Source: a virus. From it: 64,000 bases of DNA. The notes below the pieces were generated by a model. It was not told the origin of the DNA. It saw only the letters and a list, made by a program, of their open reading frames with translations, and searched no databases. Position numbers and translations under genes: made by a program. Below, piece after piece: positions 26,030 through 38,552 of the stretch (position 1 is its first letter; each line of letters begins with the position of its first letter). The DNA is taken from the IMG/VR virus record IMGVR_UViG_3300050821_003663, positions 1 through 64,000 of that record. One strand, given 5' to 3'.

Positions 26030-29000
26030 ATGGCCGACGCAGCATTCAGGACATACAACCTCGTCAACCAGTCGAAGGGAATCTCCGCCCGCTACGTCGA
26101 CGATGCCGTCCCCGAATCGGTTTACCTCAACATGGACAACGTGGAGGAGATCGAAGAGAACGCGCTCGCGTCTCGGCTCGGAAGCACGGTCATCAACAAG
26201 GGATCTTTTGGCTTAGCGTTTCCGCTATCAGGATCCGTCTATTCGCTCAACAAACTTGCAGGGTTGAACGGTATCGGATGGAGATACGCCGGTTCGGGAA
26301 CCAACCTATATCGGCGAAACGTGGCGTTCACAGGATCGTACACCGTAATCTCCACTACGATGAGTGGGCAGCCGTGGCAGGGGGTGGTCTATCAGCCAGA
26401 GATCAGCTCTATGCCGTACCTCTTCATCGCCGACCTGGCGGGGATGCTGAAGGATAACGGTTCGTTTACCCCTCCTCAAAACATGGGGATCAAGCAGCCG
26501 CAGTACCCAGTGCTCGCGCAAGCTCAAGCCCCGGACCTGATCGTGCTGGACGACTACGAATCATTGTCCACCGACTACACGTACACCGGCATCTCCGGAG
26601 GGACGGTAGGTCCGAACGTTTTCACTAACACCACATCCAATATCGCCACGCCGGGGATTCAGGAAGTCAACGTCGCAGACCCGAGCCTCATCGCACTGTA
26701 CCAGTACCTCTCCATCGGATCAGAAGCGGTGCTCGTCCTATTTGTAACCGCCACAGGGTTCATCGCGGACTTCCAGTTTCCTCACCCGACTGGATCGGCA
26801 GTAGAAAACCAGCAGCTAAGCTTTGTTGTTCCCCCGAGCACAACCGCGACCGTGAGCAAGTCGTTCGGAGGAACCCCCATATCGGCGTGGCCCACCACGC
26901 TGCAGCTAGAAGACTACATTAGCCTGTTCGTCTTCATCAGCGACCCAACCCAGGTGAAGTCGATCACTTTGAAGTTCGACTGCGGAGACGGAACTTTCGA
27001 GACAGACTACTTCTACCGCGTCATCGCACAAGGCCCGCTGCAGAGCCTTCTGGAGACACAGACAGATCCTACTGTTGCCGCGAGCGATGCGATCATATCC
27101 GAAGCGCTGGATATCTATGGAAGCAATCCCGGAGGGGTAACAGCTCTCAACACCGGACTCAACCAGTGGACTCACATCCTCCTGCAATTGTCGGACTTCG
27201 CCGGCGCGGGACGAGCGGACTTCAACGACCCATCCTTCAACTGGCAGAACGTCAACGGATACCAGGTTGAGATCGTGACTAACGATACTACGGCCGCAAC
27301 CGTTGGCCTGTGCGCCCTCGTCCTCTTTGGGGGAGCTGGTCCGGACAGCTTTGCCGGCGTTGCCTACGACTACCTCTTCACCTTCTACAACGTTGTGGAC
27401 GGCTCGGAATCGAATCCGTGCATGGTGATGACGAACATCAACCCCCCGCTCAATACGAACTGGGTGGTTCCGCGAAGGCAGCCGGTACTCTTGACGCTGA
27501 ATCACCCGATACTAGATCCACAGACCACACACCTACGTGTCTATCGTCGTGGCGGAACGCTGGGCGATAACTACCGTCGCGTCGACCAGATCGTCCCCAC
27601 GGGAACGCAGACACTCTACACGGACCTTTCGTCGGACGTTGATATCGAAGTGGCCGATACCGTGTCGTTCGTGAATGACGTGCCAGTCACCAGTACCCTG
27701 CCAGTGCCCGTAAACACGACTTTGAATGTTGCGCTCACCGCGACCAACCAAGTGCAAACGATTACCCCGGCGAGCATGGCAAATATCTCGGTAGGCCAGC
27801 AGGTGACCATAGGCAACATTGCGCCGGTAGATCTCTTGGACACGTCGGAGATCGTTATTGTGCTCACCAAGACAGGATCGAACTTCACCGCGTTCGTGCA
27901 GAACACGCACGAAGTCGGAGAACTAATCAGCGCAACCGCGCAATACTACCTACCCGTCAACATCATGGCGCAGGCTTACGACCAGATGTGGTTTGCCGGA
28001 GACAAAAATAACCCTGCGTACCTGTACTACAGCGCGAAGGGAGCGCCTCAGAACGTAGGGTCCGATAACTACGTGGCGGTGACTACCCCAGACGACCCGA
28101 TCACCGCAATCGTGCAGATCAAGGGAAACCTGTACGTGTCGACGCGAAAGTTCTGGTGGTCGATTGCACCAGGTACGAATGCAGGGCAGCCGCCCACGGT
28201 ATATCCAACGGCCGCAAAGCATGGATGTGTGGCGCCGAACGGCTACGTACTAACCGAGGAGGGCGTCTACTACCAAGCCATCGACGGCATCCGCTTCTTC
28301 GGAGGAGGAGCATCGGTCTACTTGACCCAAGATCAGGAATTCTTGTTTCAAGACGTGGGGAACACGCCGATCATCGAAGCCAATCCAAACAGCCTCAACC
28401 TGACTGTCGGCGCCTACTGGAACAACATGATCTTCTTCTCCTACGTCGGCACTGACGGGAAGAGGCATCGCCTCATCTTCCACACGGTCTATAAGCGCTG
28501 GCGAAACGATGACGCGGATGCGCAGTCGATCTTCCTCGAAGCTGACACCAACGTGCTCGTCTATGGGACAAGCGATGGCCTCGTGAAGATCGACCGGGTA
28601 GGAACGTGGGACGAGAAGAACGTAGCGGGCACGATCACGCCGACGGCAATTCCAATCAACCTGCAGTGGTCGTACAAAGATCAAGGGATGCCGGCGGAGA
28701 CGAAGATCTATCAGGAGTTCACGCTGGACTGTAACACCAACGGTCAGGACGTGACGCCGGTGCTGATGTTCAACGACGGAGAATTCTTTGAGACTCTGGA
28801 CGTAATCAACACCACAGAGCGCACGCGGTTCAACTTGCCGCTAAATAACGGTCAGGGATTCGTGGCGTACAAAGTATCGCTTGTGTTGACCGGCAATGCG
28901 CTGCAGAGAATCTTCCTCTATCAAGCCTGCATTCGCGCACTACAGCTAGCGAAGACGCGAAAGAGCCTGGACACGTACTACCTCCGCTTCTCCGACGACG

Positions 29001-29293
29001 GCTCGAAGATCTGCAAGAACCTCTTTGTGGAGTACAGCGCGAACGAGGAGATATTCTGCATGATCCAGTACGACGATCCCGCGTACGCACCGTTCACCTT
29101 CACACTGCCAGCGAGCGTAGGAGTCCGCAACCCGATGCGCGTACGGCTGCCGGCCGTAAACTTCCGTTGGCTGCGATTGACGATGATATCGAGCGACGAC
29201 TTCCAGATCTGGAACGAGAGCCGGTTCGAGGTGAAGCCCATCTGTAGCGGCAAGGGATACCAATTCTTCGGTTTGCTCAACGTAGAAACCTAG
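26030..29293 (+). CDS. Tail nozzle/stabilisation protein (P22 gp10/T7 gp12-like)
   Basis: 1087-aa beta-rich protein; LRVYRRGG, LYYSAKG, HGCVAP motifs. Confidence 0.7.
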   Translation: MADAAFRTYNLVNQSKGISARYVDDAVPESVYLNMDNVEEIEENALASRLGSTVINKGSFGLAFPLSGSVYSLNKLAGLNGIGWRYAGSGTNLYRRNVAFTGSYTVISTTMSGQPWQGVVYQPEISSMPYLFIADLAGMLKDNGSFTPPQNMGIKQPQYPVLAQAQAPDLIVLDDYESLSTDYTYTGISGGTVGPNVFTNTTSNIATPGIQEVNVADPSLIALYQYLSIGSEAVLVLFVTATGFIADFQFPHPTGSAVENQQLSFVVPPSTTATVSKSFGGTPISAWPTTLQLEDYISLFVFISDPTQVKSITLKFDCGDGTFETDYFYRVIAQGPLQSLLETQTDPTVAASDAIISEALDIYGSNPGGVTALNTGLNQWTHILLQLSDFAGAGRADFNDPSFNWQNVNGYQVEIVTNDTTAATVGLCALVLFGGAGPDSFAGVAYDYLFTFYNVVDGSESNPCMVMTNINPPLNTNWVVPRRQPVLLTLNHPILDPQTTHLRVYRRGGTLGDNYRRVDQIVPTGTQTLYTDLSSDVDIEVADTVSFVNDVPVTSTLPVPVNTTLNVALTATNQVQTITPASMANISVGQQVTIGNIAPVDLLDTSEIVIVLTKTGSNFTAFVQNTHEVGELISATAQYYLPVNIMAQAYDQMWFAGDKNNPAYLYYSAKGAPQNVGSDNYVAVTTPDDPITAIVQIKGNLYVSTRKFWWSIAPGTNAGQPPTVYPTAAKHGCVAPNGYVLTEEGVYYQAIDGIRFFGGGASVYLTQDQEFLFQDVGNTPIIEANPNSLNLTVGAYWNNMIFFSYVGTDGKRHRLIFHTVYKRWRNDDADAQSIFLEADTNVLVYGTSDGLVKIDRVGTWDEKNVAGTITPTAIPINLQWSYKDQGMPAETKIYQEFTLDCNTNGQDVTPVLMFNDGEFFETLDVINTTERTRFNLPLNNGQGFVAYKVSLVLTGNALQRIFLYQACIRALQLAKTRKSLDTYYLRFSDDGSKICKNLFVEYSANEEIFCMIQYDDPAYAPFTFTLPASVGVRNPMRVRLPAVNFRWLRLTMISSDDFQIWNESRFEVKPICSGKGYQFFGLLNVET

Positions 29294-29322
29294 TTGACAT
29301 GATTTAGCCTACGTGAGACTAT
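29294..29322 (+). promoter_or_regulatory. Promoter of tRNA cluster 1
   Basis: TTGACA-N17-GACTAT with AGCCTACGTG in spacer. Confidence 0.7.
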
Positions 29323-29328
29323 TCGGTC

Positions 29329-29403
29329 ATGCACACGTTACACAGCTCGTATTCACTGTTGTCCTGCCTCAGCGCAGGCGGCGGGGGGTATTGGCCTATG
29401 TAA
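29329..29403 (+). CDS. Attenuator leader peptide 1 MHTLHSSYSLLSCLSAGGGGYWPM
   Basis: ATG 6 nt after -10; codons 6-15 all Ser/Tyr/Leu/Cys, matching downstream tRNAs. Confidence 0.8.
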   Translation: MHTLHSSYSLLSCLSAGGGGYWPM

Positions 29404-29427
29404 CGAGATAGTCCAATCGAGTTCACT

Positions 29428-29458
29428 CCCGCCACCTAAGAATGGCGGGTATTTTTTT
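29428..29458 (+). terminator. Attenuator 1 terminator
   Basis: CCCGCCA-N8-TGGCGGG then TA and T7, ending 2 nt before first tRNA. Confidence 0.85.
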
Positions 29459-29460
29459 GT

Positions 29461-29539
29461 GCGGAGCTAGGAGAATGGCAGATCCGGCCGCCTCAAAAGC
29501 GGTGACTTCCTCTGGGTTCGAGTCCCAGGCTCCGCACCA
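29461..29539 (+). tRNA. tRNA-Leu(CAA), short variable loop
   Basis: Cloverleaf, loop CTCAAAA, ACCA end. Confidence 0.9.
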
Positions 29540-29542
29540 GAT

Positions 29543-29619
29543 GTGGCAGTAGCCAAGACGGAAAGGCGCCGGCCTGCAAAGCTGGTCATGCGGGAGTTCG
29601 ATTCTCCCCTGCCACTCCA
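29543..29619 (+). tRNA. tRNA-Cys(GCA)
   Basis: Loop CTGCAAA, TCCA end. Confidence 0.9.
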
Positions 29620-29633
29620 AGATCTTTGACAAT

Positions 29634-29709
29634 GCGCGTGTGGCCAAACGGCAAAGGCTCCGGATTTAGGCTCCGGGATGTGTGGGTTCGAATCCCACCT
29701 CGCGCACCA
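29634..29709 (+). tRNA. tRNA-Leu(TAG), short variable loop
   Basis: Loop TTTAGGC, ACCA end. Confidence 0.9.
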
Positions 29710-29718
29710 TATTTTCAC

Positions 29719-29808
29719 GGAGAGATGCGTGAACGGTAAAACGGCCGGTTTGCTAAACCGGCGGTCCTAGTGATAGGCCGCGTGGGGTCAGCACCCACTC
29801 TCTCCTCC
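29719..29808 (+). tRNA. tRNA-Ser(GCT)
   Basis: Loop TTGCTAA, long variable arm, atypical T-loop GTCAGCA, ends TCC. Confidence 0.8.
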
Positions 29809-29899
29809 GGAGGGCGCTGCTAGGCTGGTCTGGCAACTGGTCCTGAAAACCAGAGTGTACCCGCAAGGGGCAGGGGTTCGACTCCTCCGCTCTCCTCCA
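29809..29899 (+). tRNA. tRNA-Ser(TGA)
   Basis: Loop CCTGAAA (C33), long variable arm, TCCA end. Confidence 0.85.
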
Positions 29900-29904
29900 A
29901 GATT

Positions 29905-29993
29905 GCCGGTGATGTCCCGTGGGAAGTGGACGCCTGTCCGTAAAACAGAAGCGCCAAAGCGCATTGAGAGTTCGAACCTCTCCACCGGCACCA
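29905..29993 (+). tRNA. tRNA-Tyr(GTA)
   Basis: Loop CCGTAAA (C33), variable arm, ACCA end. Confidence 0.85.
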
Positions 29994-30037
29994 GAAATAA
30001 AGCTTGACCATGTAGGCTAATTGTGAAACCTTGTGAT

Positions 30038-30112
30038 GGCGGGGTAGAGCAGTGGCAGCTCGGGTGGCTCATAACCACCAGGTCGGAGGTTCAAGTCCTT
30101 CCCCCGCAACCA
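30038..30112 (+). tRNA. tRNA-Met(CAT), initiator-like
   Basis: Loop CTCATAA; unpaired G1xA72, A11-U24; only two of the three bottom G-C pairs in the anticodon stem. Confidence 0.8.
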
Positions 30113-30187
30113 TTCGATGTAACACGGGCGGAGGAAGCCAGGGGTAGTACACCCCGCCTCCGCCCAACTATTCTGGGGAGGCAACAC

Positions 30188-30403
30188 ATGGCATTCACCG
30201 AAGCGGAGATTGAAGATCTTTTCACGTACCACGCACCCAAGCCCGGACAGCAGGAGCGCTATCAGGCAATCCGCGAGTCCGCGAAGGGCTTGGCAAAGAC
30301 CATCGTCGCAAACACCCCAGCATCCGCCGATCAATCCGCAGCCATCCGCCATCTTCGTGAGGCAGTGATGACGGCCAACTCCTCAATCGCCTTGGAGAAG
30401 TAA
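30188..30403 (+). CDS. Acb2/Tad1-like helical-hairpin protein (putative immune-signal sponge)
   Basis: FTYHAPKPGQQERYQAIR...LREAVMTANSSIA pattern; GGGGAGG RBS. Confidence 0.7.
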   Translation: MAFTEAEIEDLFTYHAPKPGQQERYQAIRESAKGLAKTIVANTPASADQSAAIRHLREAVMTANSSIALEK

Positions 30404-30414
30404 AAGGAGGCCGC

Positions 30415-30963
30415 GTGAAGCTCATCCTGGTCATAGACAGAGCGCTTCTCTTGGCCTTCAACTGGACGGTTATTTTCTGTATTGAATGGTTCTCATGGAA
30501 TCGCCGGTGGATCGAGCGAGGGTGCATCATCGGATACGTGACGTTCAATGTGGTCCTTTCCGTCGACAACAAATTCGAGCACCACAGTTCCATGATGCTT
30601 TACACGCTACCCTTCACTCTGTTGATTGCCTCCGCGATGTGGGTTATCGAGGGGGACTCCGACACGAAGCGGATGGCAAGGATATGGAGCATGGAATATA
30701 TCGCCGCAAGGGTTGGCTGGTCAGGTATATGCGCAGTCTTTGTTTTCGCATTGCTAGTGGTGGCAGTGGGCGAGCATGGTAGGTATCTAGTCTCGGCGGC
30801 CGCGATGGCATGTCAGTTGACAAGCTACGTCACATACTTGTACCTCATGGCGTTACCGAGGGGCGGAGAGAAGGGCAAGCGCCGGAAGGTCGCGCTCGCG
30901 AAGCTGAAGGAGTGGTTCGGGTCACTGACGTGGCTACCTACTCCGGCAATGGAACCGCAGTAA
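30415..30963 (+). CDS. Multi-pass membrane protein
   Basis: AAGGAGG RBS; 4-5 hydrophobic segments. Confidence 0.7.
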   Translation: MKLILVIDRALLLAFNWTVIFCIEWFSWNRRWIERGCIIGYVTFNVVLSVDNKFEHHSSMMLYTLPFTLLIASAMWVIEGDSDTKRMARIWSMEYIAARVGWSGICAVFVFALLVVAVGEHGRYLVSAAAMACQLTSYVTYLYLMALPRGGEKGKRRKVALAKLKEWFGSLTWLPTPAMEPQ

Positions 30964-30975
30964 CAGGAGGCAACA

Positions 30976-31203
30976 ATGGAACCGCACCAGCAGCGAGTAG
31001 TAGACGAGCTCAAGGAGCTCGAAGTCAAGAGATCTAAACTCGGGAAGTTCATTCAGGAAAACAAAATGTTCAAGACGCTGCCGGCGGCTGAGAAGGAGAG
31101 GCTACGGCGCCAGTTCAGCATTATCATGCAGTACGAGGAAGTCCTCACCGAAAGAATCCGGGCATTCCCCGACAAAAAACTTGACACCAAGAAGAAGTCG
31201 TGA
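30976..31203 (+). CDS. crAss001_48-like helical protein (possible Sequestin-type sponge)
   Basis: MEPHQQRVVDE...KLGKFI...RQ..IMQYEEVLTERIRAF pattern; AGGAGG RBS. Confidence 0.65.
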   Translation: MEPHQQRVVDELKELEVKRSKLGKFIQENKMFKTLPAAEKERLRRQFSIIMQYEEVLTERIRAFPDKKLDTKKKS

Positions 31204-31209
31204 GACTCT
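31181..31209 (+). promoter_or_regulatory. Promoter of tRNA cluster 2
   Basis: TTGACA-N17-GACTCT; shares CGTGAGACT with the cluster 1 promoter. Confidence 0.55.
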
Positions 31210-31219
31210 CCAAAAAGAC

Positions 31220-31318
31220 ATGAAGCATACGCTCACAACGCGATTTACCCCAGCCGCCGCGCAACAGCCGCGTCAGGGTAATTGCGCATCGCATGTGGGC
31301 CGGAGCTTCAGTCGATAA
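31220..31318 (+). CDS. Attenuator leader peptide 2 MKHTLTTRFTPAAAQQPRQGNCASHVGRSFSR
   Basis: 18 of codons 3-21 specify amino acids of cluster 2 tRNAs. Confidence 0.8.
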   Translation: MKHTLTTRFTPAAAQQPRQGNCASHVGRSFSR

Positions 31319-31346
31319 ATTCTATAGACGACGGAAGTAACCAACG

Positions 31347-31376
31347 AAGGCCCACCGAATAACCGGTGGGCCTTTT
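31347..31376 (+). terminator. Attenuator 2 terminator
   Basis: AAGGCCCACCG-N6-CGGTGGGCCTTTT. Confidence 0.8.
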
Positions 31377-31389
31377 CGATGTAAATGAT

Positions 31390-31476
31390 TGGAGCGTGTC
31401 CGGAATGGCATCGGCCTCGGCTGTTAACCGAAGTGCCCGCAAGGGAGTGAAGGTTCGAGTCCTTCCGCTTCAGCCA
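31390..31476 (+). tRNA. tRNA-Asn(GTT) with long variable arm
   Basis: Loop CTGTTAA, GCCA end, extra CCC-GCAA-GGG arm. Confidence 0.8.
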
Positions 31477-31971
31477 AGTAAGTGTTTGTTTTGCGAAGTT
31501 GAGATAGTGAAAGGGAGAAAGTTCTGTTCGCACGGATGCGCGGCTAGATACAACAACAAGGCGTTCCCGAAGAGAAAACCCGAAGGCAAATGCGACGTAT
31601 GTGATGCCCCGGTAAAAAACTGCCTCAAGTATTGCGGTAAAAGCTGTAAGTCTAAGGCAGCTCACCAGCGGATGATGGAGACGATAAAGCAGACGAACGG
31701 TCAAAAAGTAGTTCGCTGGCGGCAACGGACCAAAGTTATAGCGGTAAAGTACAAGGGATCAAAGTGCTGTAGGTGTGGATACGACAGGTGCATAAAGGCC
31801 CTAGACTTCCACCACATTGATCCAGCGAAGAAGGATTTTTCAGTGAGCGGGGTGTCCCGCTCATGGGAGTCAATAAAGGCGGAACTGGATAAGTGCATAC
31901 TGGTTTGCGCAAATTGCCATCGAGAGCTTCACGATGGGATGTGGAACGTAGAAGCCCCGAGCGGGCAGTAG
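31405..31971 (+). CDS. HNH endonuclease with N-terminal Zn fingers (start uncertain, inside tRNA-Asn)
   Basis: CCRCGY...LDFHHIDP...CILVCANCHRELH. Confidence 0.85.
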   Translation: MASASAVNRSARKGVKVRVLPLQPSKCLFCEVEIVKGRKFCSHGCAARYNNKAFPKRKPEGKCDVCDAPVKNCLKYCGKSCKSKAAHQRMMETIKQTNGQKVVRWRQRTKVIAVKYKGSKCCRCGYDRCIKALDFHHIDPAKKDFSVSGVSRSWESIKAELDKCILVCANCHRELHDGMWNVEAPSGQ

Positions 31972-32008
31972 TTGGCAGATGTTTGACAATCGAAACGCAA
32001 GATAATGA

Positions 32009-32083
32009 TCGGGAGTATTTCAACAGGCAGAATCATCGGCTCTGAACCGATAGATGGGGGTTCGACTCCTCTCTCCCGATCCA
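32009..32083 (+). tRNA. tRNA-Gln(CTG)
   Basis: Loop CTCTGAA, U1-A72, TCCA end. Confidence 0.9.
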
Positions 32084-32093
32084 AAATTTTCGA

Positions 32094-32167
32094 TGCGTGA
32101 TCGGCTAACGGTAGGCCGGCGTCCTTTGAAGTCGTCTGTCTAGGTTCGAATCCTAGTCACGCAACCA
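32094..32167 (+). tRNA. tRNA-Gln(TTG)
   Basis: Loop CTTTGAA, U1-A72. Confidence 0.85.
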
Positions 32168-32168
32168 C

Positions 32169-32243
32169 GCGGGGTTCGTATAGTGGCTAGTACGGCGGCC
32201 TGCCAGGTCGCACACGAGAGTTCGAGTCTCTCACCCCGCTCCA
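32169..32243 (+). tRNA. tRNA-Gly(GCC)
   Basis: Loop CTGCCAG, GCG acceptor, TCCA end. Confidence 0.9.
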
Positions 32244-32250
32244 CAAGATT

Positions 32251-32354
32251 CTGTCGTACGCCGAAGATTCACTTTCCAAGGGAGGGCGGAAGCTGACTAG
32301 ATCGGATGCGAGAGGCATCTCGCCCTGACTTCAAAAGGCTCTGACGTACGACGG
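32251..32354 (+). ncRNA. Unassigned structured RNA in tRNA array
   Basis: 10-bp closing stem CTGTCGTACG/CGTACGACGG, inner GGGCG/CGCCC and GATGC/GCATC stems. Confidence 0.55.
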
Positions 32355-32365
32355 ATGCGCAATTC

Positions 32366-32438
32366 GCTGGCATCGTTCAACGGTAGGACGTCGGTTTCGT
32401 ACTCCGAAAATCCGGTTCAAATCCGGTTGCCAGCTCCA
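32366..32438 (+). tRNA. tRNA-Thr(CGT)
   Basis: Loop TTCGTAC, TCCA end. Confidence 0.85.
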
Positions 32439-32468
32439 CATGCGGTACATTCTAGGAAAGGAGGGTCT

Positions 32469-33008
32469 ATGCAGGATGCAACAAAGCAGGTTGTACTTCA
32501 ACTCAATTATTCATTCGAGCCGATGGCATTTTGTAATGTACGTCGTGCTGCGCGTCTTGTCGTAAAGGGCAAGGCTAGAATTATCGAACACGACGGTCGC
32601 GAACTGTCAGCCGGCATCATGTTTCCTGCGGTGATCCGCCTTATGGAGTACCGGCACGTACCTCACAAGATGCAGACGCTATCGCGAAAGAACATTCTGA
32701 TTCGCGACCGCAACCAGTGTCAGTACTGCGGAGAGAGGTTCCAGCCGAGCGAGCTAACCCTTGACCACGTTCACCCGAGATCTAAGGGCGGCTTGAGCAC
32801 CTGGGCGAACCTTGTAGCCTGCTGTGGCCCTTGCAACCGCAAGAAGGGCGACAAGACGGTCGAGGAAGCGGGTCTGATGTTGCTGCATCGTCCACGACCG
32901 ATGACGATCCACACGTCACGGTTCCTGATGCGGTCGATGGGCGTCGACGATCCAAGGTGGAAGAGGTATCTCTACACCGAGTCTGACAAAAAGTACACGC
33001 ACTCATAG
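32469..33008 (+). CDS. HNH endonuclease (McrA-like HNH family)
   Basis: AAAGGAGG RBS; RDRNQCQYCG, TLDHVHPRSKGG, WANLVACCGPCNRKKG. Confidence 0.92.
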   Translation: MQDATKQVVLQLNYSFEPMAFCNVRRAARLVVKGKARIIEHDGRELSAGIMFPAVIRLMEYRHVPHKMQTLSRKNILIRDRNQCQYCGERFQPSELTLDHVHPRSKGGLSTWANLVACCGPCNRKKGDKTVEEAGLMLLHRPRPMTIHTSRFLMRSMGVDDPRWKRYLYTESDKKYTHS

Positions 33009-33073
33009 CTCGAAGCGCGAGCATCCGCATGGTAGGCGGAAGGCGATGGGTTGGATTCCCTCTGAGTGCTCCA
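32999..33073 (+). tRNA. tRNA-Thr(GGT), atypical D/T loops
   Basis: GCACTCA/TGAGTGC acceptor, loop ATGGTAG, TCCA end; overlaps HNH stop. Confidence 0.7.
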
Positions 33074-33078
33074 ACAAT

Positions 33079-33149
33079 GCTGGTAGCCCGAGCGCGGAAC
33101 GCCCCTTGTAAGGCCGTTCTCTCAGGTTCGACTCCTGTTGCCAGCTCCA
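33079..33149 (+). tRNA. tRNA-Thr(TGT), reduced D arm
   Basis: Loop CTTGTAA, normal T loop, TCCA end. Confidence 0.7.
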
Positions 33150-33152
33150 AGT

Positions 33153-33231
33153 GTGACCGTAGCCAAGCCAGGTCTAAGGCGCGTGATTGTGGCTCACGTA
33201 TTCGCGGGTTCAAATCCCGTCGGTCACCCCA
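33153..33231 (+). tRNA. tRNA-His(GTG)
   Basis: Loop TTGTGGC, C73-CCA; T rather than G at -1. Confidence 0.88.
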
Positions 33232-33232
33232 A

Positions 33233-33332
33233 GTGGGGGGATTCGCGGAGGTCGCACGTTCGAATCGTGCCGAAGGCGTTCTAAACACCGCCATCGTAGC
33301 TCAGTGGCAGAGCGCCGCGATTATCCCCCTGC
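33233..33332 (+). ncRNA. Circularly permuted tRNA-like RNA without anticodon
   Basis: T arm precedes D arm, acceptor stem closed by a loop, anticodon stem runs into terminal G/C stem. Confidence 0.75.
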
Positions 33333-33347
33333 AACAATTTCAAATGT

Positions 33348-33421
33348 GGGCCGGTAGCATAACGGGAATGCGTCTCCCTTGCAAGGAGAAAGATGGGGTT
33401 CGACTCCCCCCGTGTCCACCA
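33348..33421 (+). tRNA. tRNA-Ala(TGC)
   Basis: Loop CTTGCAA, G3-U70, ACCA end; imperfect acceptor stem. Confidence 0.8.
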
Positions 33422-33431
33422 ATTTTCAGAA

Positions 33432-33507
33432 GTCCCCGTAGCTCAGACGGTAGAGCGCTGTCCTGAAAAGGCAGGCGTCGTGATCTCGAACATCACCGGG
33501 GGCACCA
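33432..33507 (+). tRNA. tRNA-Phe(GAA)
   Basis: Loop CTGAAAA; T-loop CTCGAAC. Confidence 0.88.
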
Positions 33508-33508
33508 C

Positions 33509-33582
33509 TCGGGTATAGCTGGAAGGTCAAGCCTATGATTTGGGATCATAAGACGTCGGTTCGATTCCGACTACCCGGACCA
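33509..33582 (+). tRNA. tRNA-Pro(TGG)
   Basis: Loop TTTGGGA, G72 A73. Confidence 0.88.
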
Positions 33583-33589
33583 TTTTTAT

Positions 33590-33666
33590 CCACCCGTCGT
33601 CCAATCGGATTAGGGCACGTGGCTACGAACCACGAGACGGAGGTTCGAATCCTTCCGGGTGGACCA
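33590..33666 (+). tRNA. tRNA-Arg(ACG)
   Basis: Loop CTACGAA, ACCA end. Confidence 0.9.
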
Positions 33667-33668
33667 CA

Positions 33669-33697
33669 TTGACAAAACCAGCCTACATGGCTAGGAT
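33669..33697 (+). promoter_or_regulatory. Promoter of Y RNA/Ro60 unit
   Basis: TTGACA-N17-TAGGAT with AGCCTACATG in spacer. Confidence 0.8.
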
Positions 33698-33717
33698 GAT
33701 CTTGCGTTTCGATATTG

Positions 33718-33820
33718 TTCTCCGTTAGTGAAAGTACTCGGTTACTTCATTGCCAATAGCCCCGCAAGGGACTTAATGATTCCCGAAAGGGATAACCGGA
33801 TGCGAATGTTCTACGGGGAA
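33718..33820 (+). ncRNA. Y RNA-like unit 1
   Basis: Closing stem TTCTCCGT/ACGGGGAA; TAGTGAA..CGGTTACTTC..CCG..GTTC core; two GNRA hairpins. Confidence 0.75.
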
Positions 33821-33825
33821 AAGTT

Positions 33826-33940
33826 TGAGACCTGGTGAAAGTTGACGGCTACTTCTTGGTTCGAATCCAAGCCGGAGGCAACTCTGGCTGCCACCAAAAA
33901 ACGGTACGGTGGCTACCCGTTGGCGCAGGTTCCGGTCTCA
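33826..33940 (+). ncRNA. Y RNA-like unit 2 (with T-loop arm)
   Basis: TGAGACC/GGTCTCA stem; TGGTGAA..CGGCTACTTC; TTGG-TTCGAAT-CCAA arm. Confidence 0.75.
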
Positions 33941-33950
33941 GAAAAGATAT

Positions 33951-34013
33951 GAGCCTTAGTGCCGTTACGGATACTTCATGCTAAGAAAACTCCGTAGCAA
34001 TCGTTCTAGGCTC
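33951..34013 (+). ncRNA. Y RNA-like unit 3 (minimal, 63 nt)
   Basis: GAGCCT/AGGCTC stem; TAGTG..CGGATACTTC..CTCCGTAG..GTTC. Confidence 0.7.
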
Positions 34014-34021
34014 TCGATGTT

Positions 34022-34156
34022 GTTCGGGATAGTGAAGTTTACGGATACTTCCCTTTGGCGGACGAGGTCGCAGGTTCGAGCCCTGCCATTCGCTTCGGCG
34101 GATGTAGCTCAGTGGTAGAGCGCGTAAATCTCCGTAGGCGCCTGTTCTTCCCGATC
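34022..34156 (+). ncRNA. yrlA: YrlA-type Y RNA (tRNA mimic)
   Basis: TCGGGA/TCCCGA stem, CGGATACTTC core, T arm then UUCG-closed acceptor then D arm TAGCTCAGTGGTAGAGC; adjacent to Ro60. Confidence 0.85.
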
Positions 34157-34163
34157 TAATACG

Positions 34164-34190
34164 AGAGCCAGACTTCGGTCTGGCTCTTTT
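34164..34190 (+). terminator. Intrinsic terminator between Y RNAs and Ro60
   Basis: AGAGCCAGAC-TTCG-GTCTGGCTCT-TTT. Confidence 0.85.
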
Positions 34191-34214
34191 GCTTTTACCA
34201 AGGAGGGTAAAACG

Positions 34215-35567
34215 ATGCGATCAAACGTTGCAGAAAAGAAGCCATTGCTCTACACCCACGAGGGCGCGGTAGCAGTGTACGCGAGCCCGGAGGACCAGCT
34301 TCGGCGCTCAGTGATGTCCAACATGCTCTTCGAGGATGAATTCTACGAAGACGGCCAGGAGATCTCGAAGCGAATCGAGTCGTCAGTCGCAGAGCTCATC
34401 AAGACTCGCGGCGGAGCGGATACGGTCGCAAACATCGCGTTCGAGGCCCGGACGAAGATGAAGCTGCGTCACGTGCCGTTGCTGTTGCTGGTATCGCTGA
34501 TTCGCGCCAACACGGCCGAGACTCGCGCTATCGTTGCCGGCGCCATCGCACACGTCATACAGCGGCCTGACGAGCTGGGCGAGCTTGTGTCGTTGTTCTG
34601 GAAGCAGAGTGGCGGACGGAAGATGCTGCCGAACCAGATGAAGAAGGGTCTCGCGCTCGCGCTGGACAAGTTCAACGAGTACTCGCTGGCGAAGTACGAC
34701 ATGAGTTCGGCCGCAGTGAAGCTGCGTGACGTGCTCTTCTTGAGCCACGCGAAGCCAGCCGGAGTTGAGAAGGCGGATCTCTACAAGCGCATCGCAGCGA
34801 ACGAGCTGAAGACGCCTGACACCTGGGAGGTTGCTCTCTCGGGCGGAGCGGACAAGAAGGAGACGTTCACTCGTCTTCTGACCGAGGGCAACCTTGGAGC
34901 GCTTGCGCTTCTCCGTAACCTGCGAAACATGACGGAGGCCGGCGTGGAGACGGAAGTCATCCGTGAGGGTCTTGGAAAGATGAAGACCGAGCGGGTACTA
35001 CCTTTCCGGTTCATCACGGCAGCTCGCTACGCGCCATCCTTCGAGCCTCAGCTTGAAGAGGCGATGTTCCGGTGTCTCGCTTCGTTCACGAAGTTTCCCG
35101 GCAAGACGACGCTGTGCATCGACACGTCAGCTTCGATGAGCGCAAAGGTATCCGGCAAGTCGGAGATCAGCCGGCGGGATGCAGCGGCCGCGCTGGCGAT
35201 GATGCTGCGTGAGATCTGCGGTGACTGCGAGGTTATCGCGTTCGGAACGCAAGCGGCTGTTGTTCGGCCACGCCGGGGATTCGCGTTGAACGACGAGATC
35301 GGAAGCGGTCGGTTCGGTCACGGAACCAACATTGGCGAAGCAACGGCGCTGGCAGCAACGAAGGGCTACGACCGCATCATCGTCATCACCGATGAGCAGT
35401 CGGCTACGCCAACGAAGGCTCCGGAGTACGGAACCAAGGGCTACTTCATCAACGTGGCCAGCAACAAGAACGGTATCGGCTATGGCGCCTGGACCCACAT
35501 CGACGGATGGAGCGAAGCAGTCATCGACTACATCGCTCGCTTCGAGGGCCTTGAAGGCGAAGAGTAG
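34215..35567 (+). CDS. rsr: Ro60/TROVE-domain RNA-binding protein
   Basis: THEGAVA, LRHVP, QRPDE, FNEYSLAKY, LRDVLFLSHAKP, ALLRNLRNM, LPFRF; vWA DTSASM, HGTN, ITDEQ, DGWSE. Confidence 0.95.
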   Translation: MRSNVAEKKPLLYTHEGAVAVYASPEDQLRRSVMSNMLFEDEFYEDGQEISKRIESSVAELIKTRGGADTVANIAFEARTKMKLRHVPLLLLVSLIRANTAETRAIVAGAIAHVIQRPDELGELVSLFWKQSGGRKMLPNQMKKGLALALDKFNEYSLAKYDMSSAAVKLRDVLFLSHAKPAGVEKADLYKRIAANELKTPDTWEVALSGGADKKETFTRLLTEGNLGALALLRNLRNMTEAGVETEVIREGLGKMKTERVLPFRFITAARYAPSFEPQLEEAMFRCLASFTKFPGKTTLCIDTSASMSAKVSGKSEISRRDAAAALAMMLREICGDCEVIAFGTQAAVVRPRRGFALNDEIGSGRFGHGTNIGEATALAATKGYDRIIVITDEQSATPTKAPEYGTKGYFINVASNKNGIGYGAWTHIDGWSEAVIDYIARFEGLEGEE

Positions 35568-35568
35568 C

Positions 35569-35603
35569 TTGACACGGTAGTATGCGAGTGCTACCGTGTC
35601 TTT
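35569..35603 (+). promoter_or_regulatory. Overlapping Ro60 terminator hairpin and promoter of tRNA cluster 3
   Basis: GACACGGTAG/CTACCGTGTC hairpin plus TTT; TTGACA-N17-TACCGT with TG extension. Confidence 0.6.
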
Positions 35604-35637
35604 GAAGTCCGATCACTAGGGAGAATCTTTGTAGGCG

Positions 35638-35718
35638 ATGAGACAGACCTTCAAACACGTCGTCATAACCATCACCATTGAAAAGTGGGGGCGGGGAGAT
35701 ATGTGTTTGAGGGTCTGA
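35638..35718 (+). CDS. Attenuator leader peptide 3 MRQTFKHVVITITIEKWGRGDMCLRV
   Basis: 13 of codons 8-22 match cluster 3 tRNAs; 1:2, 2:3, 3:4 pairings visible. Confidence 0.82.
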   Translation: MRQTFKHVVITITIEKWGRGDMCLRV

Positions 35719-35745
35719 TCCATACCATACGTGGTATCACCAGAC

Positions 35746-35768
35746 CCCCTCCAAGTGAGGGGATTTTT
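35746..35768 (+). terminator. Attenuator 3 terminator
   Basis: CCCCTC-CAAGT-GAGGGG-ATTTTT. Confidence 0.8.
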
Positions 35769-35799
35769 ATTGGTCTTTGAAAATTGTAAATATATTTAC

Positions 35800-35874
35800 G
35801 GGAGATTCGTACAGCGGCCAGTACGGCAGATTCCAAACCTGCTTACGAGGGTTCGAGTCCTTCATCTCCCGCCA
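35800..35874 (+). tRNA. tRNA-Trp(CCA)
   Basis: Loop TTCCAAA, GCCA end. Confidence 0.9.
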
Positions 35875-35875
35875 T

Positions 35876-35951
35876 CCCGGTATAGCTCAGTGGTAGAGCG
35901 TCACCCTCATAAGGTGGGGGCCGATTGGTTCGAATCCATCTGCCGGGACCA
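35876..35951 (+). tRNA. tRNA with CAT anticodon (elongator Met or Ile2)
   Basis: Loop CTCATAA, paired 1:72, ACCA end. Confidence 0.85.
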
Positions 35952-35953
35952 GT

Positions 35954-36030
35954 GCGCAGCTAACTCAACTGGCTAGAGTATTCGCCTCTTAAGCGAAAGG
36001 TTCTGGGTTCGATCCCCAGGCTGCGCACCA
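35954..36030 (+). tRNA. tRNA-Lys(CTT)
   Basis: Loop CTCTTAA. Confidence 0.92.
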
Positions 36031-36039
36031 ACAAGTTTC

Positions 36040-36115
36040 GGGAGTGTAACTCAAGAGGAAGAGGACCAGCCTTTTAAGCTGGACGATGAGATTTCGAGTA
36101 TCTCCGCTCCCACCA
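36040..36115 (+). tRNA. tRNA-Lys(TTT)
   Basis: Loop CTTTTAA. Confidence 0.9.
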
Positions 36116-36116
36116 T

Positions 36117-36192
36117 GCACCTGTAGCTCAATTGGATAGAGCGCCGGGCTTCTAACCCGGTGATATGGGTTCGAGTCCCATCGGGCGCTCCA
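36117..36192 (+). tRNA. tRNA-Arg(TCT)
   Basis: Loop CTTCTAA. Confidence 0.9.
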
Positions 36193-36193
36193 C

Positions 36194-36271
36194 GCGGTAA
36201 TCGTCTAGTCTGGCCCAGGACTCCTGCTTTTCACGCAGACAACACGGGTTCGAATCCCGTTTACCGCCCCA
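36194..36271 (+). tRNA. tRNA-Glu(TTC)
   Basis: Loop TTTTCAC. Confidence 0.9.
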
Positions 36272-36276
36272 CATTC

Positions 36277-36350
36277 GCCGTCATCCGCCAAGGGTAAGCG
36301 ACATGATTCTCACTCATGCAATCGGAGCTCGACTCTCCGTGACGGCACCA
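36277..36350 (+). tRNA. tRNA-Glu(CTC)
   Basis: Loop TTCTCAC; T-loop CTCGACT. Confidence 0.85.
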
Positions 36351-36355
36351 CATTC

Positions 36356-36431
36356 GCTCTCCTCGTCCAATCGGATAGGGCACCGGTTTCCTAAACCGTG
36401 AATGGCAGTTCAAATCTGCCGGAGAGCACCA
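36356..36431 (+). tRNA. tRNA-Arg(CCT)
   Basis: Loop TTCCTAA. Confidence 0.9.
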
Positions 36432-36435
36432 TTTT

Positions 36436-36512
36436 GCGCGAGTAGCTCAGTTGGACAGAGCGCTGTCCTCCGAAGGCAGAGGCCGCAGGTTCGACTCCTG
36501 CCTCGCGCACCA
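36436..36512 (+). tRNA. tRNA-Arg(CCG)
   Basis: Loop CTCCGAA. Confidence 0.92.
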
Positions 36513-36517
36513 GTTTT

Positions 36518-36593
36518 GCGGCAGTAGCTTAGTGGTCAGAGTCCCTGATTGTCGATCAGGTTCGCGGGAGTTCGAATCTCCTCTGCCGCGCCA
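36518..36593 (+). tRNA. tRNA-Asp(GTC)
   Basis: Loop TTGTCGA, GCCA end. Confidence 0.9.
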
Positions 36594-36597
36594 CATT

Positions 36598-36678
36598 GCA
36601 AGGTTGGCCGAGTGGTCGATGGCGCCTGTCTTACAAACAGGTTTATCGCCGGGGGTTCGAATCCCTCACCTTGCACCA
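36598..36678 (+). tRNA. tRNA-Val(TAC), atypical body
   Basis: Loop CTTACAA; 3-bp D stem GCC/GGC and 9-nt variable loop. Confidence 0.8.
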
Positions 36679-36682
36679 GTTT

Positions 36683-36759
36683 GGACGTAGAGCTCGGATG
36701 GCATGAGCATTCGCCTGATAAGCGAAAGGCCAGTGGTTCAAGTCCACTTACGTCCACCA
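36683..36759 (+). tRNA. tRNA-Ile(GAT)
   Basis: Loop CTGATAA. Confidence 0.9.
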
Positions 36760-36763
36760 ATTC

Positions 36764-36838
36764 GCGGGGTTAGCTGAGTGGAAAAGCGCTGGCCTTCCAA
36801 GCCGGAGATCGTGAGTTCAATCCTCACACCCCGCTCCA
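36764..36838 (+). tRNA. tRNA-Gly(TCC)
   Basis: Loop CTTCCAA, TCCA end. Confidence 0.9.
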
Positions 36839-36895
36839 CAAAATAATTCAGCCTACACAGGAAACATGCTACTATCGCGAAAAGGTAGCATCGAA

Positions 36896-37675
36896 ATGCC
36901 CCTGAGACACATTAGGAACTTCTTCAAGAGGCCCACAGCGAAGGCATACTGGTGGACGCAGATCGCCAATTTTGGCGATGCGCTCGCACCGCTGCTTCTC
37001 GGCCGGTTCGCCGACCTGGACAACGTCCAATACGCTCCGGTTGGCGAGGCGAACATTGCTTCCGTGGGCTCAATCCTGGAACACATCCCCGCCGGTTGGA
37101 GCGGGTACATCGTCGGCTCAGGCATTCTACGCGAAGAGTCAAAGCTAAAGTTTGACCCCCAGCAAGCCAAGATCCTAGCGCTTCGCGGCCCACTGTCGGC
37201 TCGCGGAATAAAGGGCAGCTTCGCGATAGGAGATCCCGGACTACTCGCCAACGAGCTCGTCGGGATCCAGGAGAAGCAGTGGGACTTGGGAATCGTTCCG
37301 CACTGGCTGGATGACCAGTTAGAAAAAAGGTTCCGCAAGCTGGTTCCAACGAAGTTCACCCTCAAAGTCATCAGCCCGCACAACCACCCCCTCAAGGTCA
37401 TCAGGGAGATAGGCGCTTGCAAGAGAATCGTTACATCATCCCTTCATGGAATGATTGTGGCGGACTCCATCGGCGGCATCCCCCGAAGGGTAGAGGTGTG
37501 CGAAAAGATGAAGAGGGAGGGGGGAACGTTCAAATTCCACGACTACAGCGCTTCGATAAAGACGCCACTTCAGATCGGGAAGATGACCGAGCCGAACTAT
37601 AACCAGGTTGACGACACGAAGAACGAAATCTACGACGCCTACAGAGAGCTCGGCGGGCTATATGGGAAAAATTGA
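36896..37675 (+). CDS. Polysaccharide pyruvyltransferase (ExoV-like)
   Basis: NFGDAL, VGSIL, ALRGPLS, GDPGLL, GIVPH, TSSLHG, FKFHDY. Confidence 0.88.
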   Translation: MPLRHIRNFFKRPTAKAYWWTQIANFGDALAPLLLGRFADLDNVQYAPVGEANIASVGSILEHIPAGWSGYIVGSGILREESKLKFDPQQAKILALRGPLSARGIKGSFAIGDPGLLANELVGIQEKQWDLGIVPHWLDDQLEKRFRKLVPTKFTLKVISPHNHPLKVIREIGACKRIVTSSLHGMIVADSIGGIPRRVEVCEKMKREGGTFKFHDYSASIKTPLQIGKMTEPNYNQVDDTKNEIYDAYRELGGLYGKN

Positions 37676-38552
37676 TCTAGGCGGAGTTGTCCGAAGGGCG
37701 TGGTTCACTCTGCGTAGGCTAGTCAGAGCTCGCGGCCACGGCATCAGCATCCTTGTGCCGCTGTACTTCGATGGCGCCGGCGGCCAGCGAGAGAGAAACT
37801 GGAACTGGCTGAGGGAATACTGGAGGGTAAATCTTCCCGGCGCAGAAGTGGTGATCGGAAGAGATGCGGAAGCCATTCGGAGTCAGACGCCATTTTCAAA
37901 GTCCGCAGCTATAAACGATGCGGCGAGCAGGGCGCTAGGCGATGTCTTTGTGGTCGTCGACGCCGACATCTACATCCCCGCCCAAACAATCGTTGATTGC
38001 GCCAAGGAGATTCGCCTTGCCGTAAGTAAGGGTAGGAAGCTCTGGTTTGTCCCGTACCGCAAGATCTTTCGACTCACGGAAGAAGCTTCGCGCAAGTTGC
38101 TGGAATCCAGCCCAAAGCGTCCGGTCACACCTACCGATGGGATACAGGCCATGACCGTCGGACACTGGTGGGGAGCGATGATCCAGATGATGCCCCGCGA
38201 GGCGTTCGAGACGGTTGGCGGCTGGGATCCACGGTTCAAGGGGTGGGGAGGAGAAGATCGAGCCGCAATGGTGGCGATGGACACTCTCTACGGACCACAC
38301 AAGACCTTTCGAGGCGAGGTGCTCCATATTTGGCACCCCGTCATTACCAGACCTTCGGCCGATAATGATCGGGTGAAGAGTCGTATGTGGGCGAATCAGG
38401 ATCCAAGCCAGTACAACAACGTTCTCTCGGGAAGGTACTTTGCGTCTCAGTGGAACGTGAAGCGGATGAGGCGACTCGTGGATGAGTTCAAGAACGAGGG
38501 GACCGTCTCCAGCCCGGACAGCTCACCGCCAACCTCCACCATCTCGCCCTAG
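37662..38552 (+). CDS. GT-A glycosyltransferase (GT2/GT7C-like)
   Basis: FSKSAAIN, VDADI, GGWDPRFKGWGGED, HIWH. Confidence 0.88.
   Translation: MGKIDLGGVVRRAWFTLRRLVRARGHGISILVPLYFDGAGGQRERNWNWLREYWRVNLPGAEVVIGRDAEAIRSQTPFSKSAAINDAASRALGDVFVVVDADIYIPAQTIVDCAKEIRLAVSKGRKLWFVPYRKIFRLTEEASRKLLESSPKRPVTPTDGIQAMTVGHWWGAMIQMMPREAFETVGGWDPRFKGWGGEDRAAMVAMDTLYGPHKTFRGEVLHIWHPVITRPSADNDRVKSRMWANQDPSQYNNVLSGRYFASQWNVKRMRRLVDEFKNEGTVSSPDSSPPTSTISP

Follow-up and report, generated by a model that had tools for sequence, protein, structure and literature searches.

The tRNA region and its leader units

The window analysed here is the first 64 kb of the 103,677-bp IMG/VR record IMGVR_UViG_3300050821_003663, a genome with direct terminal repeats and 57% G+C. 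It belongs to a soil phage that has no close cultured relative. A gene for a 1087-aa virion protein ends at 29293, directly upstream of the promoter of the first of three leader units (leader 1). The virion protein is 24% identical to proteins of phages of Tunturiibacter (Acidobacteriota), and metagenomic contigs about 100 kb long carry more than 120 homologs of it with 45-67% identity; the host of the phage is probably a member of the Acidobacteriota. A single-protein scan over viral contigs gave no matches.

The features of the region are collected in Table 1. The leader 1 promoter has a -35 box TTGACA (29294-99), a 17-nt spacer with TG at 29314-15, and a -10 box GACTAT (29317-22). This -10 box is non-canonical, and the position taken for the transcription start is deduced from it. 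The pattern TTGAC-N17-[GT]AnnnT occurs seven times genome-wide, four of them within the tRNA region. The start codon of the leader ORF follows the -10 box after 6 nt, a spacing that the preliminary description had pointed out and that recurs in five further lineages (see below); because the ATG is so close to the -10 box, the leader 1 mRNA is probably leaderless.

The six tRNA genes of block 1 differ in how readily they are detected. ARAGORN with default settings calls Leu-CAA, Cys-GCA, Leu-TAG and Ser-GCT, and sees Ser-TGA (29809-99) and Tyr-GTA (29905-93) when thresholds are relaxed; in Rfam, Tyr-GTA is a tRNA match (36.2 bits) and Ser-TGA gives only a sub-threshold match to the tRNA-Sec model. 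The tRNA-Leu gene starts at 29461 and the T-run before it ends at 29459. There is no space for a second promoter, so the six tRNAs can be reached only through the terminator.

Table 1. Leader units, RNA segments and tRNA blocks of the region (window coordinates)
Feature	Position	Strand	Basis or detail
Promoter 1, sigma-70-like	29294..29322	+	Read from sequence; architecture kept in L003, L004, L005, L015, L018
Leader ORF 1	29329..29403	+	ATG 29329-31, 24 sense codons, TAA 29401-03
Putative regulatory run, ten consecutive Ser/Tyr/Leu/Cys codons (codons 6-15)	29344..29373	+	Sequence
Segment 1, 5' arm of 1:2 hairpin (predicted)	29336..29367	+	MFE folds
Segment 2, 3' arm of 1:2 hairpin (predicted)	29374..29405	+	G-run 29380-87 alternatively pairs with 29426-33
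Antiterminator 2:3 (predicted)	29380..29433	+	29380-87 with 29426-33, enclosing hairpin 29390-99 with 29408-17
Intrinsic terminator 3:4 (predicted)	29428..29459	+	Stem 29428-34/29443-49, then T-run
Block 1, putatively regulated tRNA genes: Leu(CAA), Cys(GCA), Leu(TAG), Ser(GCT), Ser(TGA), Tyr(GTA)	29461..29993	+	ARAGORN, Rfam
Sister unit: promoter (TTGACA), leader ORF, terminator	31181..31372	+	32-codon ORF 31220-31318, terminator 31349-72
Block 2, tRNAs Asn, Gln, Gln, Gly, Thr, Thr, Thr?, His, Ala, Phe, Pro, Arg	31390-33666	+	Follow the 31220 leader
Sister unit: promoter, leader ORF, terminator	35569..35770	+	26-codon ORF 35638-35718, terminator 35746-62 plus T-run
Block 3, 13 tRNAs	35800-36838	+	Follow the 35638 leader

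Two sister units of the same make-up precede the other two tRNA blocks; in the one at 35569-35770 the closing stem is kept in relatives. Block 2 is split by at least one HNH-type homing endonuclease gene (32355-33008, which matches PHROGs HNH families), and contains another ORF (31366-31971) that has no Pfam match but whose DNA is in part similar to HNH genes from other phages. It also includes a probable tRNA-Thr(TGT) at 33080-33150 that ARAGORN and Rfam missed: its anticodon loop reads CT-TGT-AA, ARAGORN with relaxed settings gives only an undetermined tRNA, and L003 (one of the uncultured relatives described below) has a Thr-TGT in the syntenic position.

A tRNA-Met(CAT) gene at 30038 (30004-30112 of the window) has its own promoter, whose -10 box ends 5 nt before the tRNA, and no leader ORF. 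Relatives L004 and L015 likewise have a layout with its own promoter and no leader, there ahead of Met-Asp-Glu-Glu. An initiator role for this tRNA-Met was considered and rejected, its acceptor end and anticodon stem, judged by eye, being unlike those of an initiator.

Searches of 28500-38000 with the Rfam models of amino-acid operon leaders (His, Leu, Thr, Trp) and of the T-box riboswitch gave no match at E<=1, and leader 1 is not a sequence member of those operon leader families. A degenerate tRNA or tRNA-like origin of 29380-29436 was also rejected, no tRNA model matching this stretch at E<=1.

Codon content and conservation of the leaders

Codons 6-15 of leader 1 are AGC, TCG, TAT, TCA, CTG, TTG, TCC, TGC, CTC and AGC, an unbroken run of Ser, Tyr, Leu and Cys that the preliminary description had already reported. 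In all, these four amino acids account for 12 of the 23 post-start codons, against a background of 0.197. Runs of at least ten such codons occur only twice in the six frames of the whole 103.7-kb genome, the other being poly-Ser. Within the leader 1 stretch the ORF frame holds 12 Leu/Ser/Cys/Tyr codons and the remaining frames 6 and 4, so the codon bias is not a by-product of a pyrimidine-rich strand.

Is the run matched to the genes that follow? It had been claimed that each of the six tRNAs downstream has a cognate codon in the run, and this holds under standard wobble for 6/6; for coverage of all six by the leader P=1.8e-3 in comparison with random coding windows as long as the leader. Two of the codons, TCC and CTC, require extended U34 wobble, and codon 4 (TTA) has no cognate tRNA in block 1. 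The sister leaders behave in the same way: the 31220 leader has a cognate codon for 12/12 block-2 tRNAs (P=3.4e-3) and the 35638 leader for 11/13 block-3 tRNAs (P=1.3e-2), though some of their codons, for example those for His and Thr in the 35638 leader, have no tRNA in their own block. When the three leaders were compared with all three tRNA sets, only the own-set cells stood out (6/6, 12/12, 11/13); the six off-diagonal cells all had P>0.6. We propose that the two sister units gate the remaining two blocks likewise.

Loci of relatives were fetched from viral and metagenome contigs with a profile of the virion protein. In four further lineages (L003, L004, L005/L015 and L018/L020) a tRNA array follows directly after the virion gene, the promoter architecture is that of leader 1 in the window, and the terminator abuts a tRNA-Leu gene. 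The start codon in relatives again lies 6-7 nt after the -10 box (ATG at 6; in L003 GTG at 7 and ATG at 10), a conserved spacing that fits leaderless initiation. These relatives have leader 1 ORFs of 21-23 codons in which Leu, Ser, Cys and Tyr take 11-13 of the 20-22 post-start codons. Overall the leader 1 design recurs in five further lineages, one of them a cultured phage, with ORFs of 21-32 codons; the order of residues varies between lineages and the composition is kept. All three unit types recur in the uncultured relatives. It should be kept in mind that the lineages are homologous and hence not independent replicates, and that there is some peptide-level similarity between their leaders.

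Pattern searches for further units added little. Among the matches listed for a loose pattern of the 35638-type leader one was real (that in L003) and the rest were due to chance; two tighter leader patterns found nothing beyond contigs already known, and a search with the exact terminator pattern had no matches.

The bias is specific to the reading frame and to the individual codons. In 14/14 leader instances the codons matching the leader's own tRNA set are about 1.3- to 4-fold as frequent in the ORF frame as in each other frame. Six leaders together use 52 distinct Ser/Leu codons where 40.1 are expected from codon usage, a value that none of 20000 simulations (0/20000) reached; in L005 the six Leu codons are all six possible ones. 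Such an excess of synonymous diversity is how a sensor of individual isoacceptors should look, and it is the opposite of what selection for translational efficiency gives.

The codons also move with the tRNAs. In the window's genome the Asp and Glu tRNAs are in block 3, and only the block-3 leader has Asp/Glu codons. In L003, L004 and L018 these tRNAs come after block 1; there Asp/Glu codons are found in leader 1 and the block-3 leader has none. L005/L015 is an exception, its leader 1 having neither an Asp nor a Glu codon. L004 and L015 carry a tRNA-Ile(TAT) in block 3 and an ATA codon in the block-3 leader.

The best DNA match to the tRNA region was the cultured jumbo Tunturiibacter phage Tunturi_5 (PP885688.1, 308,711 bp); megablast and blastn searches of the region against cultured phages gave matches to the tRNAs alone. 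Tunturi_5 carries all three leader units, unannotated. Its leader 1 is a 32-codon ORF (L181, 7747-7845) upstream of a Leu-Cys-Leu-Leu-Tyr-Leu-Ser-Ser-Ser cluster, with Leu, Ser, Cys and Tyr in 16 of 31 post-start codons and a terminator that then abuts tRNA-Leu. Ahead of each of its two remaining tRNA regions stands an ORF of one of the two sister types, together with a terminator. The GenBank entry PP885688.1 has no feature for the three leader ORFs (about 231156-231254; L182, 523-636; L183, 774-923), nor for the tRNAs under the match. The paper in which Tunturi_5 is described reports 43 tRNAs and does not mention how they are controlled (PMC11924767).

Alternative RNA pairings around the terminator

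The leader 1 RNA can form three structures. The 1:2 hairpin (29336-29405), which encloses nearly the whole ORF, has a predicted energy of -31.1 kcal/mol (z -3.7), the 2:3 fold (29377-29435) -23.0 kcal/mol (z -2.2), and the 3:4 terminator -13.1 kcal/mol (z -3.7). Both pairings predicted in the preliminary description are part of the 2:3 fold: GGCGGG with the CCCGCC of the terminator 5' arm, and an inner 10-bp helix containing a single mismatch. As a duplex, 2:3 reaches -18.3 kcal/mol, compared with -10.9 +/- 2.4 for shuffled sequences (P=0.005). The energies rank as in a classical attenuator: 1:2 and 3:4 together outweigh 2:3, but with segment 1 blocked 2:3 outweighs 3:4. Free RNA is predicted to fold as the 1:2 hairpin plus the terminator.

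Folding with a ribosome mask, the check proposed in the preliminary description, was done at equilibrium by placing a footprint from -15 to +12 of the A-site at each codon and computing the pairing probability of the terminator. Free RNA gave a probability of 0.96; with the ribosome stalled at codons 4-12 the value dropped to 0-0.14, and at codon 13 it was 0.4. The zone in which a stall matters (codons 4-12/13) nearly overlaps the ten-codon run. With the ribosome anywhere from codon 14 through the stop codon the probability was 0.8-1.0, which agrees with the earlier suggestion that a ribosome reaching the TAA would free the terminator. A clean equilibrium switch is seen only for the window's leader 1 and for L003. 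L004 and L015 show it in part; in L005, L018 and Tunturi_5 the switch is weak, and in Tunturi_5 it is also noisy. In the 31220 unit equilibrium folding never favoured the antiterminator, and the terminator always won.

A whole-leader MAFFT alignment of the relatives was out of register in the terminator, and duplex tests and a terminator-only alignment were therefore used. The antiterminator pairing covaries across the lineages: the sequence of the terminator 5' arm differs between them, and each has, 3-22 nt ahead of the stop codon, a segment complementary to its own arm. P values for this 2:3 complementarity against shuffles were 0.005, 0.019, 0.001, 0.009, <0.001 and 0.106, that is, five of the six leader 1 instances go beyond shuffles. 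The terminator hairpin itself is kept in the seven sequences of the terminator-only alignment, with compensatory changes, both sides being altered at 5/9 pairs.

One element of these structures may have another origin. A 15-bp palindrome, GTCCAAAWTTTGGAC, occurs every 5-25 kb in the genome (genome coordinates 8652, 25484, 51665, 62133, 85113, 95037 and 101158) and is present also in L003, L004, L005, L006, L008, L011, L015 and L018, including relatives without tRNA arrays. In relatives one copy lies just past the leader 1 stop codon and forms a small hairpin; the window's leader holds only half of it. Since this post-stop hairpin is a copy of a dispersed palindrome, part of the apparent RNA structure may be a DNA-level motif.

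Proposed mechanism, alternatives and genomic setting

Leader 1 combines a promoter-proximal ORF, regulatory codons related to the genes downstream, a terminator ahead of these genes, mutually exclusive pairings and a matching stall geometry, and every sequence-level prediction of a ribosome-mediated attenuator that was tested held for it. We consider it quite likely that the unit is a ribosome-mediated (leader-peptide) transcription attenuator gating a phage tRNA operon, a reading supported by the comparative evidence. The phage would then probably make the block-1 tRNAs only while the codons of the run are read slowly.

The following sequence of events can be envisaged. Host RNA polymerase would initiate a leaderless mRNA on the ATG at 29329 or right beside it, and a 70S ribosome would translate the 24-codon leader as the polymerase moves on. 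Should Ser, Leu, Cys or Tyr tRNAs for codons ~4-13 be scarce, the ribosome would stall on segment 1 and segment 2 would be available as a pairing partner for the 5' arm of the terminator; the terminator would then not form, and transcription would read through into the six tRNA genes. If the codons were read fast, the ribosome at the ORF end would cover segment 2 and the terminator would form; it would form also in untranslated RNA, such as that from read-through out of the upstream virion gene, through 1:2 pairing. The net effect would be a negative feedback in which the tRNA set is made when the matching decoding capacity is low and is turned off once the gap is filled. The physiological signal might be, for example, a poor host tRNA pool, decay of host tRNAs or a tRNA-cleaving defence.

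Three other explanations were weighed. In the first, which we regard as unlikely, the terminator is constitutively leaky, the unit is a stand-alone sRNA or small-protein gene, the tRNAs are made by fixed-rate read-through and the ORF senses nothing. An sRNA gene would indeed look like this, with its promoter, terminator and structured RNA of 130 nt, and both the weak equilibrium switch in several relatives and the partial peptide similarity between lineages would sit well with it. It leaves unexplained, however, the match of each of three leaders to its own tRNA block alone, the restriction of the bias to one frame, the over-diversity of synonymous codons, and the movement of Asp/Glu codons with Asp/Glu tRNAs. 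An identification of the unit with a known sRNA was rejected, the sole Rfam match (anti-hemB, E=0.7) not being significant.

In the second, which seems very unlikely to us, the leader does sense decoding speed but its output is Rho-dependent termination, transcript stability or processing of tRNA precursors. The codon match speaks for a sensor that works through translation and says nothing of how the output is produced, and the antiterminator of the 31220 unit is thermodynamically much weaker than its terminator; against this, a canonical GC-rich stem with T-run stands between ORF and tRNAs in every lineage, and in most instances the 3' end of the ORF complements the terminator 5' arm beyond shuffled controls. 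The third, that ORF and codon run arose by chance as by-products of a pyrimidine-rich strand pairing with a G-rich one, is highly improbable: the need to pair with the G-rich segment 2 does push segment 1 towards pyrimidine-rich codons, but this accounts neither for the counts in the other frames nor for the rarity of such runs in the genome, nor for a design repeated in six lineages with three units per genome.

How does a ribosome-mediated attenuator of this kind compare with known systems? Multivalent leaders are familiar from enterobacteria, where those of ilvGMEDA (Ile/Val/Leu) and thr (Thr/Ile) stand beside trpL, hisL, leuL and pheL. The ilv/thr-type leaders share with the phage unit a short promoter-proximal ORF with regulatory codons, exclusive 1:2, 2:3 and 3:4 pairings, an intrinsic terminator before the genes, and a stop codon so placed that the terminating ribosome masks segment 2. 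They control biosynthetic enzymes, whereas the phage unit would control tRNAs, is phage-encoded and apparently leaderless, and in leader 1 would sense four amino acids (nine in each sister unit) through many synonymous codons. In E. coli the pheST attenuator, with its pheM leader, controls phenylalanyl-tRNA synthetase and is thus likewise a case of leader-peptide attenuation of a component of the decoding apparatus by charged-tRNA supply; unlike the phage unit it responds to one amino acid, governs genes for a protein and lies on the chromosome. T-boxes also sense tRNA status and choose between terminator and antiterminator, but they bind uncharged tRNA directly and without translation, whereas the phage unit has a conserved ORF.

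As far as we know, hardly anything has been described about how phages control their tRNA genes. The tRNAs of phages tend to be framed as constitutive helpers in codon usage or as a counter to tRNA-cleaving defences. Examples of the latter are the phage T5 tRNA-Tyr acting against retron-Eco7 and tRNA-Lys against PrrC (PMC11555353). Islands used in this way resemble the present one in that phage tRNA supply makes up for loss of host tRNA, but they are described with strong promoters and no sensing leader is reported for them (PMC11555353). Leaderless ORFs are also found in mycobacteria where, according to the abstract of the report (bioRxiv 10.1101/834739), poly-Cys short ORFs attenuate expression of cysteine metabolism genes. 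As far as that abstract goes, pausing at a codon run remodels downstream RNA there as it would in the phage, but the effect is on a sequestered ribosome-binding site, that is, on translation, and only one amino acid is involved (bioRxiv 10.1101/834739).

A search of the full-text literature turned up no description of tRNA genes controlled by leader-peptide attenuation. The mechanism itself is known; its application to tRNA genes is probably new. If the attenuator reading is right, this would be the first case of feedback control to be described for tRNA genes. A textbook mechanism known for responding to amino-acid supply would then serve decoding capacity as well, down to single isoacceptors, and the attenuator would give a direct read-out of the tRNAs that matter during infection. 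Such compact leaders could also act as natural sensors of tRNA availability. As the units are present in Tunturi_5, whose host is Tunturiibacter psychrotolerans, bench testing is possible. With less assurance, we lean towards a wider view in which phage tRNA islands are self-regulating: each block would have a leaderless peptide serving as a codon checklist that reports decoding isoacceptor by isoacceptor, the block depleted by host tRNA decay or a tRNA-cleaving defence would be the one switched on, and the module would be common to unrelated acidobacterial phages, Tunturi_5 included.

Several neighbouring elements are of note. The first protein gene after tRNA-Met (30188-30403, + strand) encodes a 71-aa protein with an Acb2/Tad1 hairpin domain (PF24729, E 2e-12), the family of phage sponges for CBASS and Thoeris signals; given this gene, the tRNA region may belong to a counter-defence island. 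A 13-nt motif close to TTAGCCTACATGG has about ten intergenic copies in both orientations, among them (genome coordinates) 21542, 29304, 30020(-), 33678, 54038, 54774(-), 56096 and 84888. Three copies lie inside the spacers of the promoters at 29294, 30004 and 33669, and the motif is a candidate operator for a phage regulator of tRNA/ncRNA promoters. The promoter at 33669 (TTGACA) belongs to a locus with a terminator of its own (34163-88) in which two sub-threshold Rfam matches to YrlA, a Y RNA-like family (33230-33343 and 34062-34127), adjoin a gene for a TROVE/Ro60-type protein (34215-35567).
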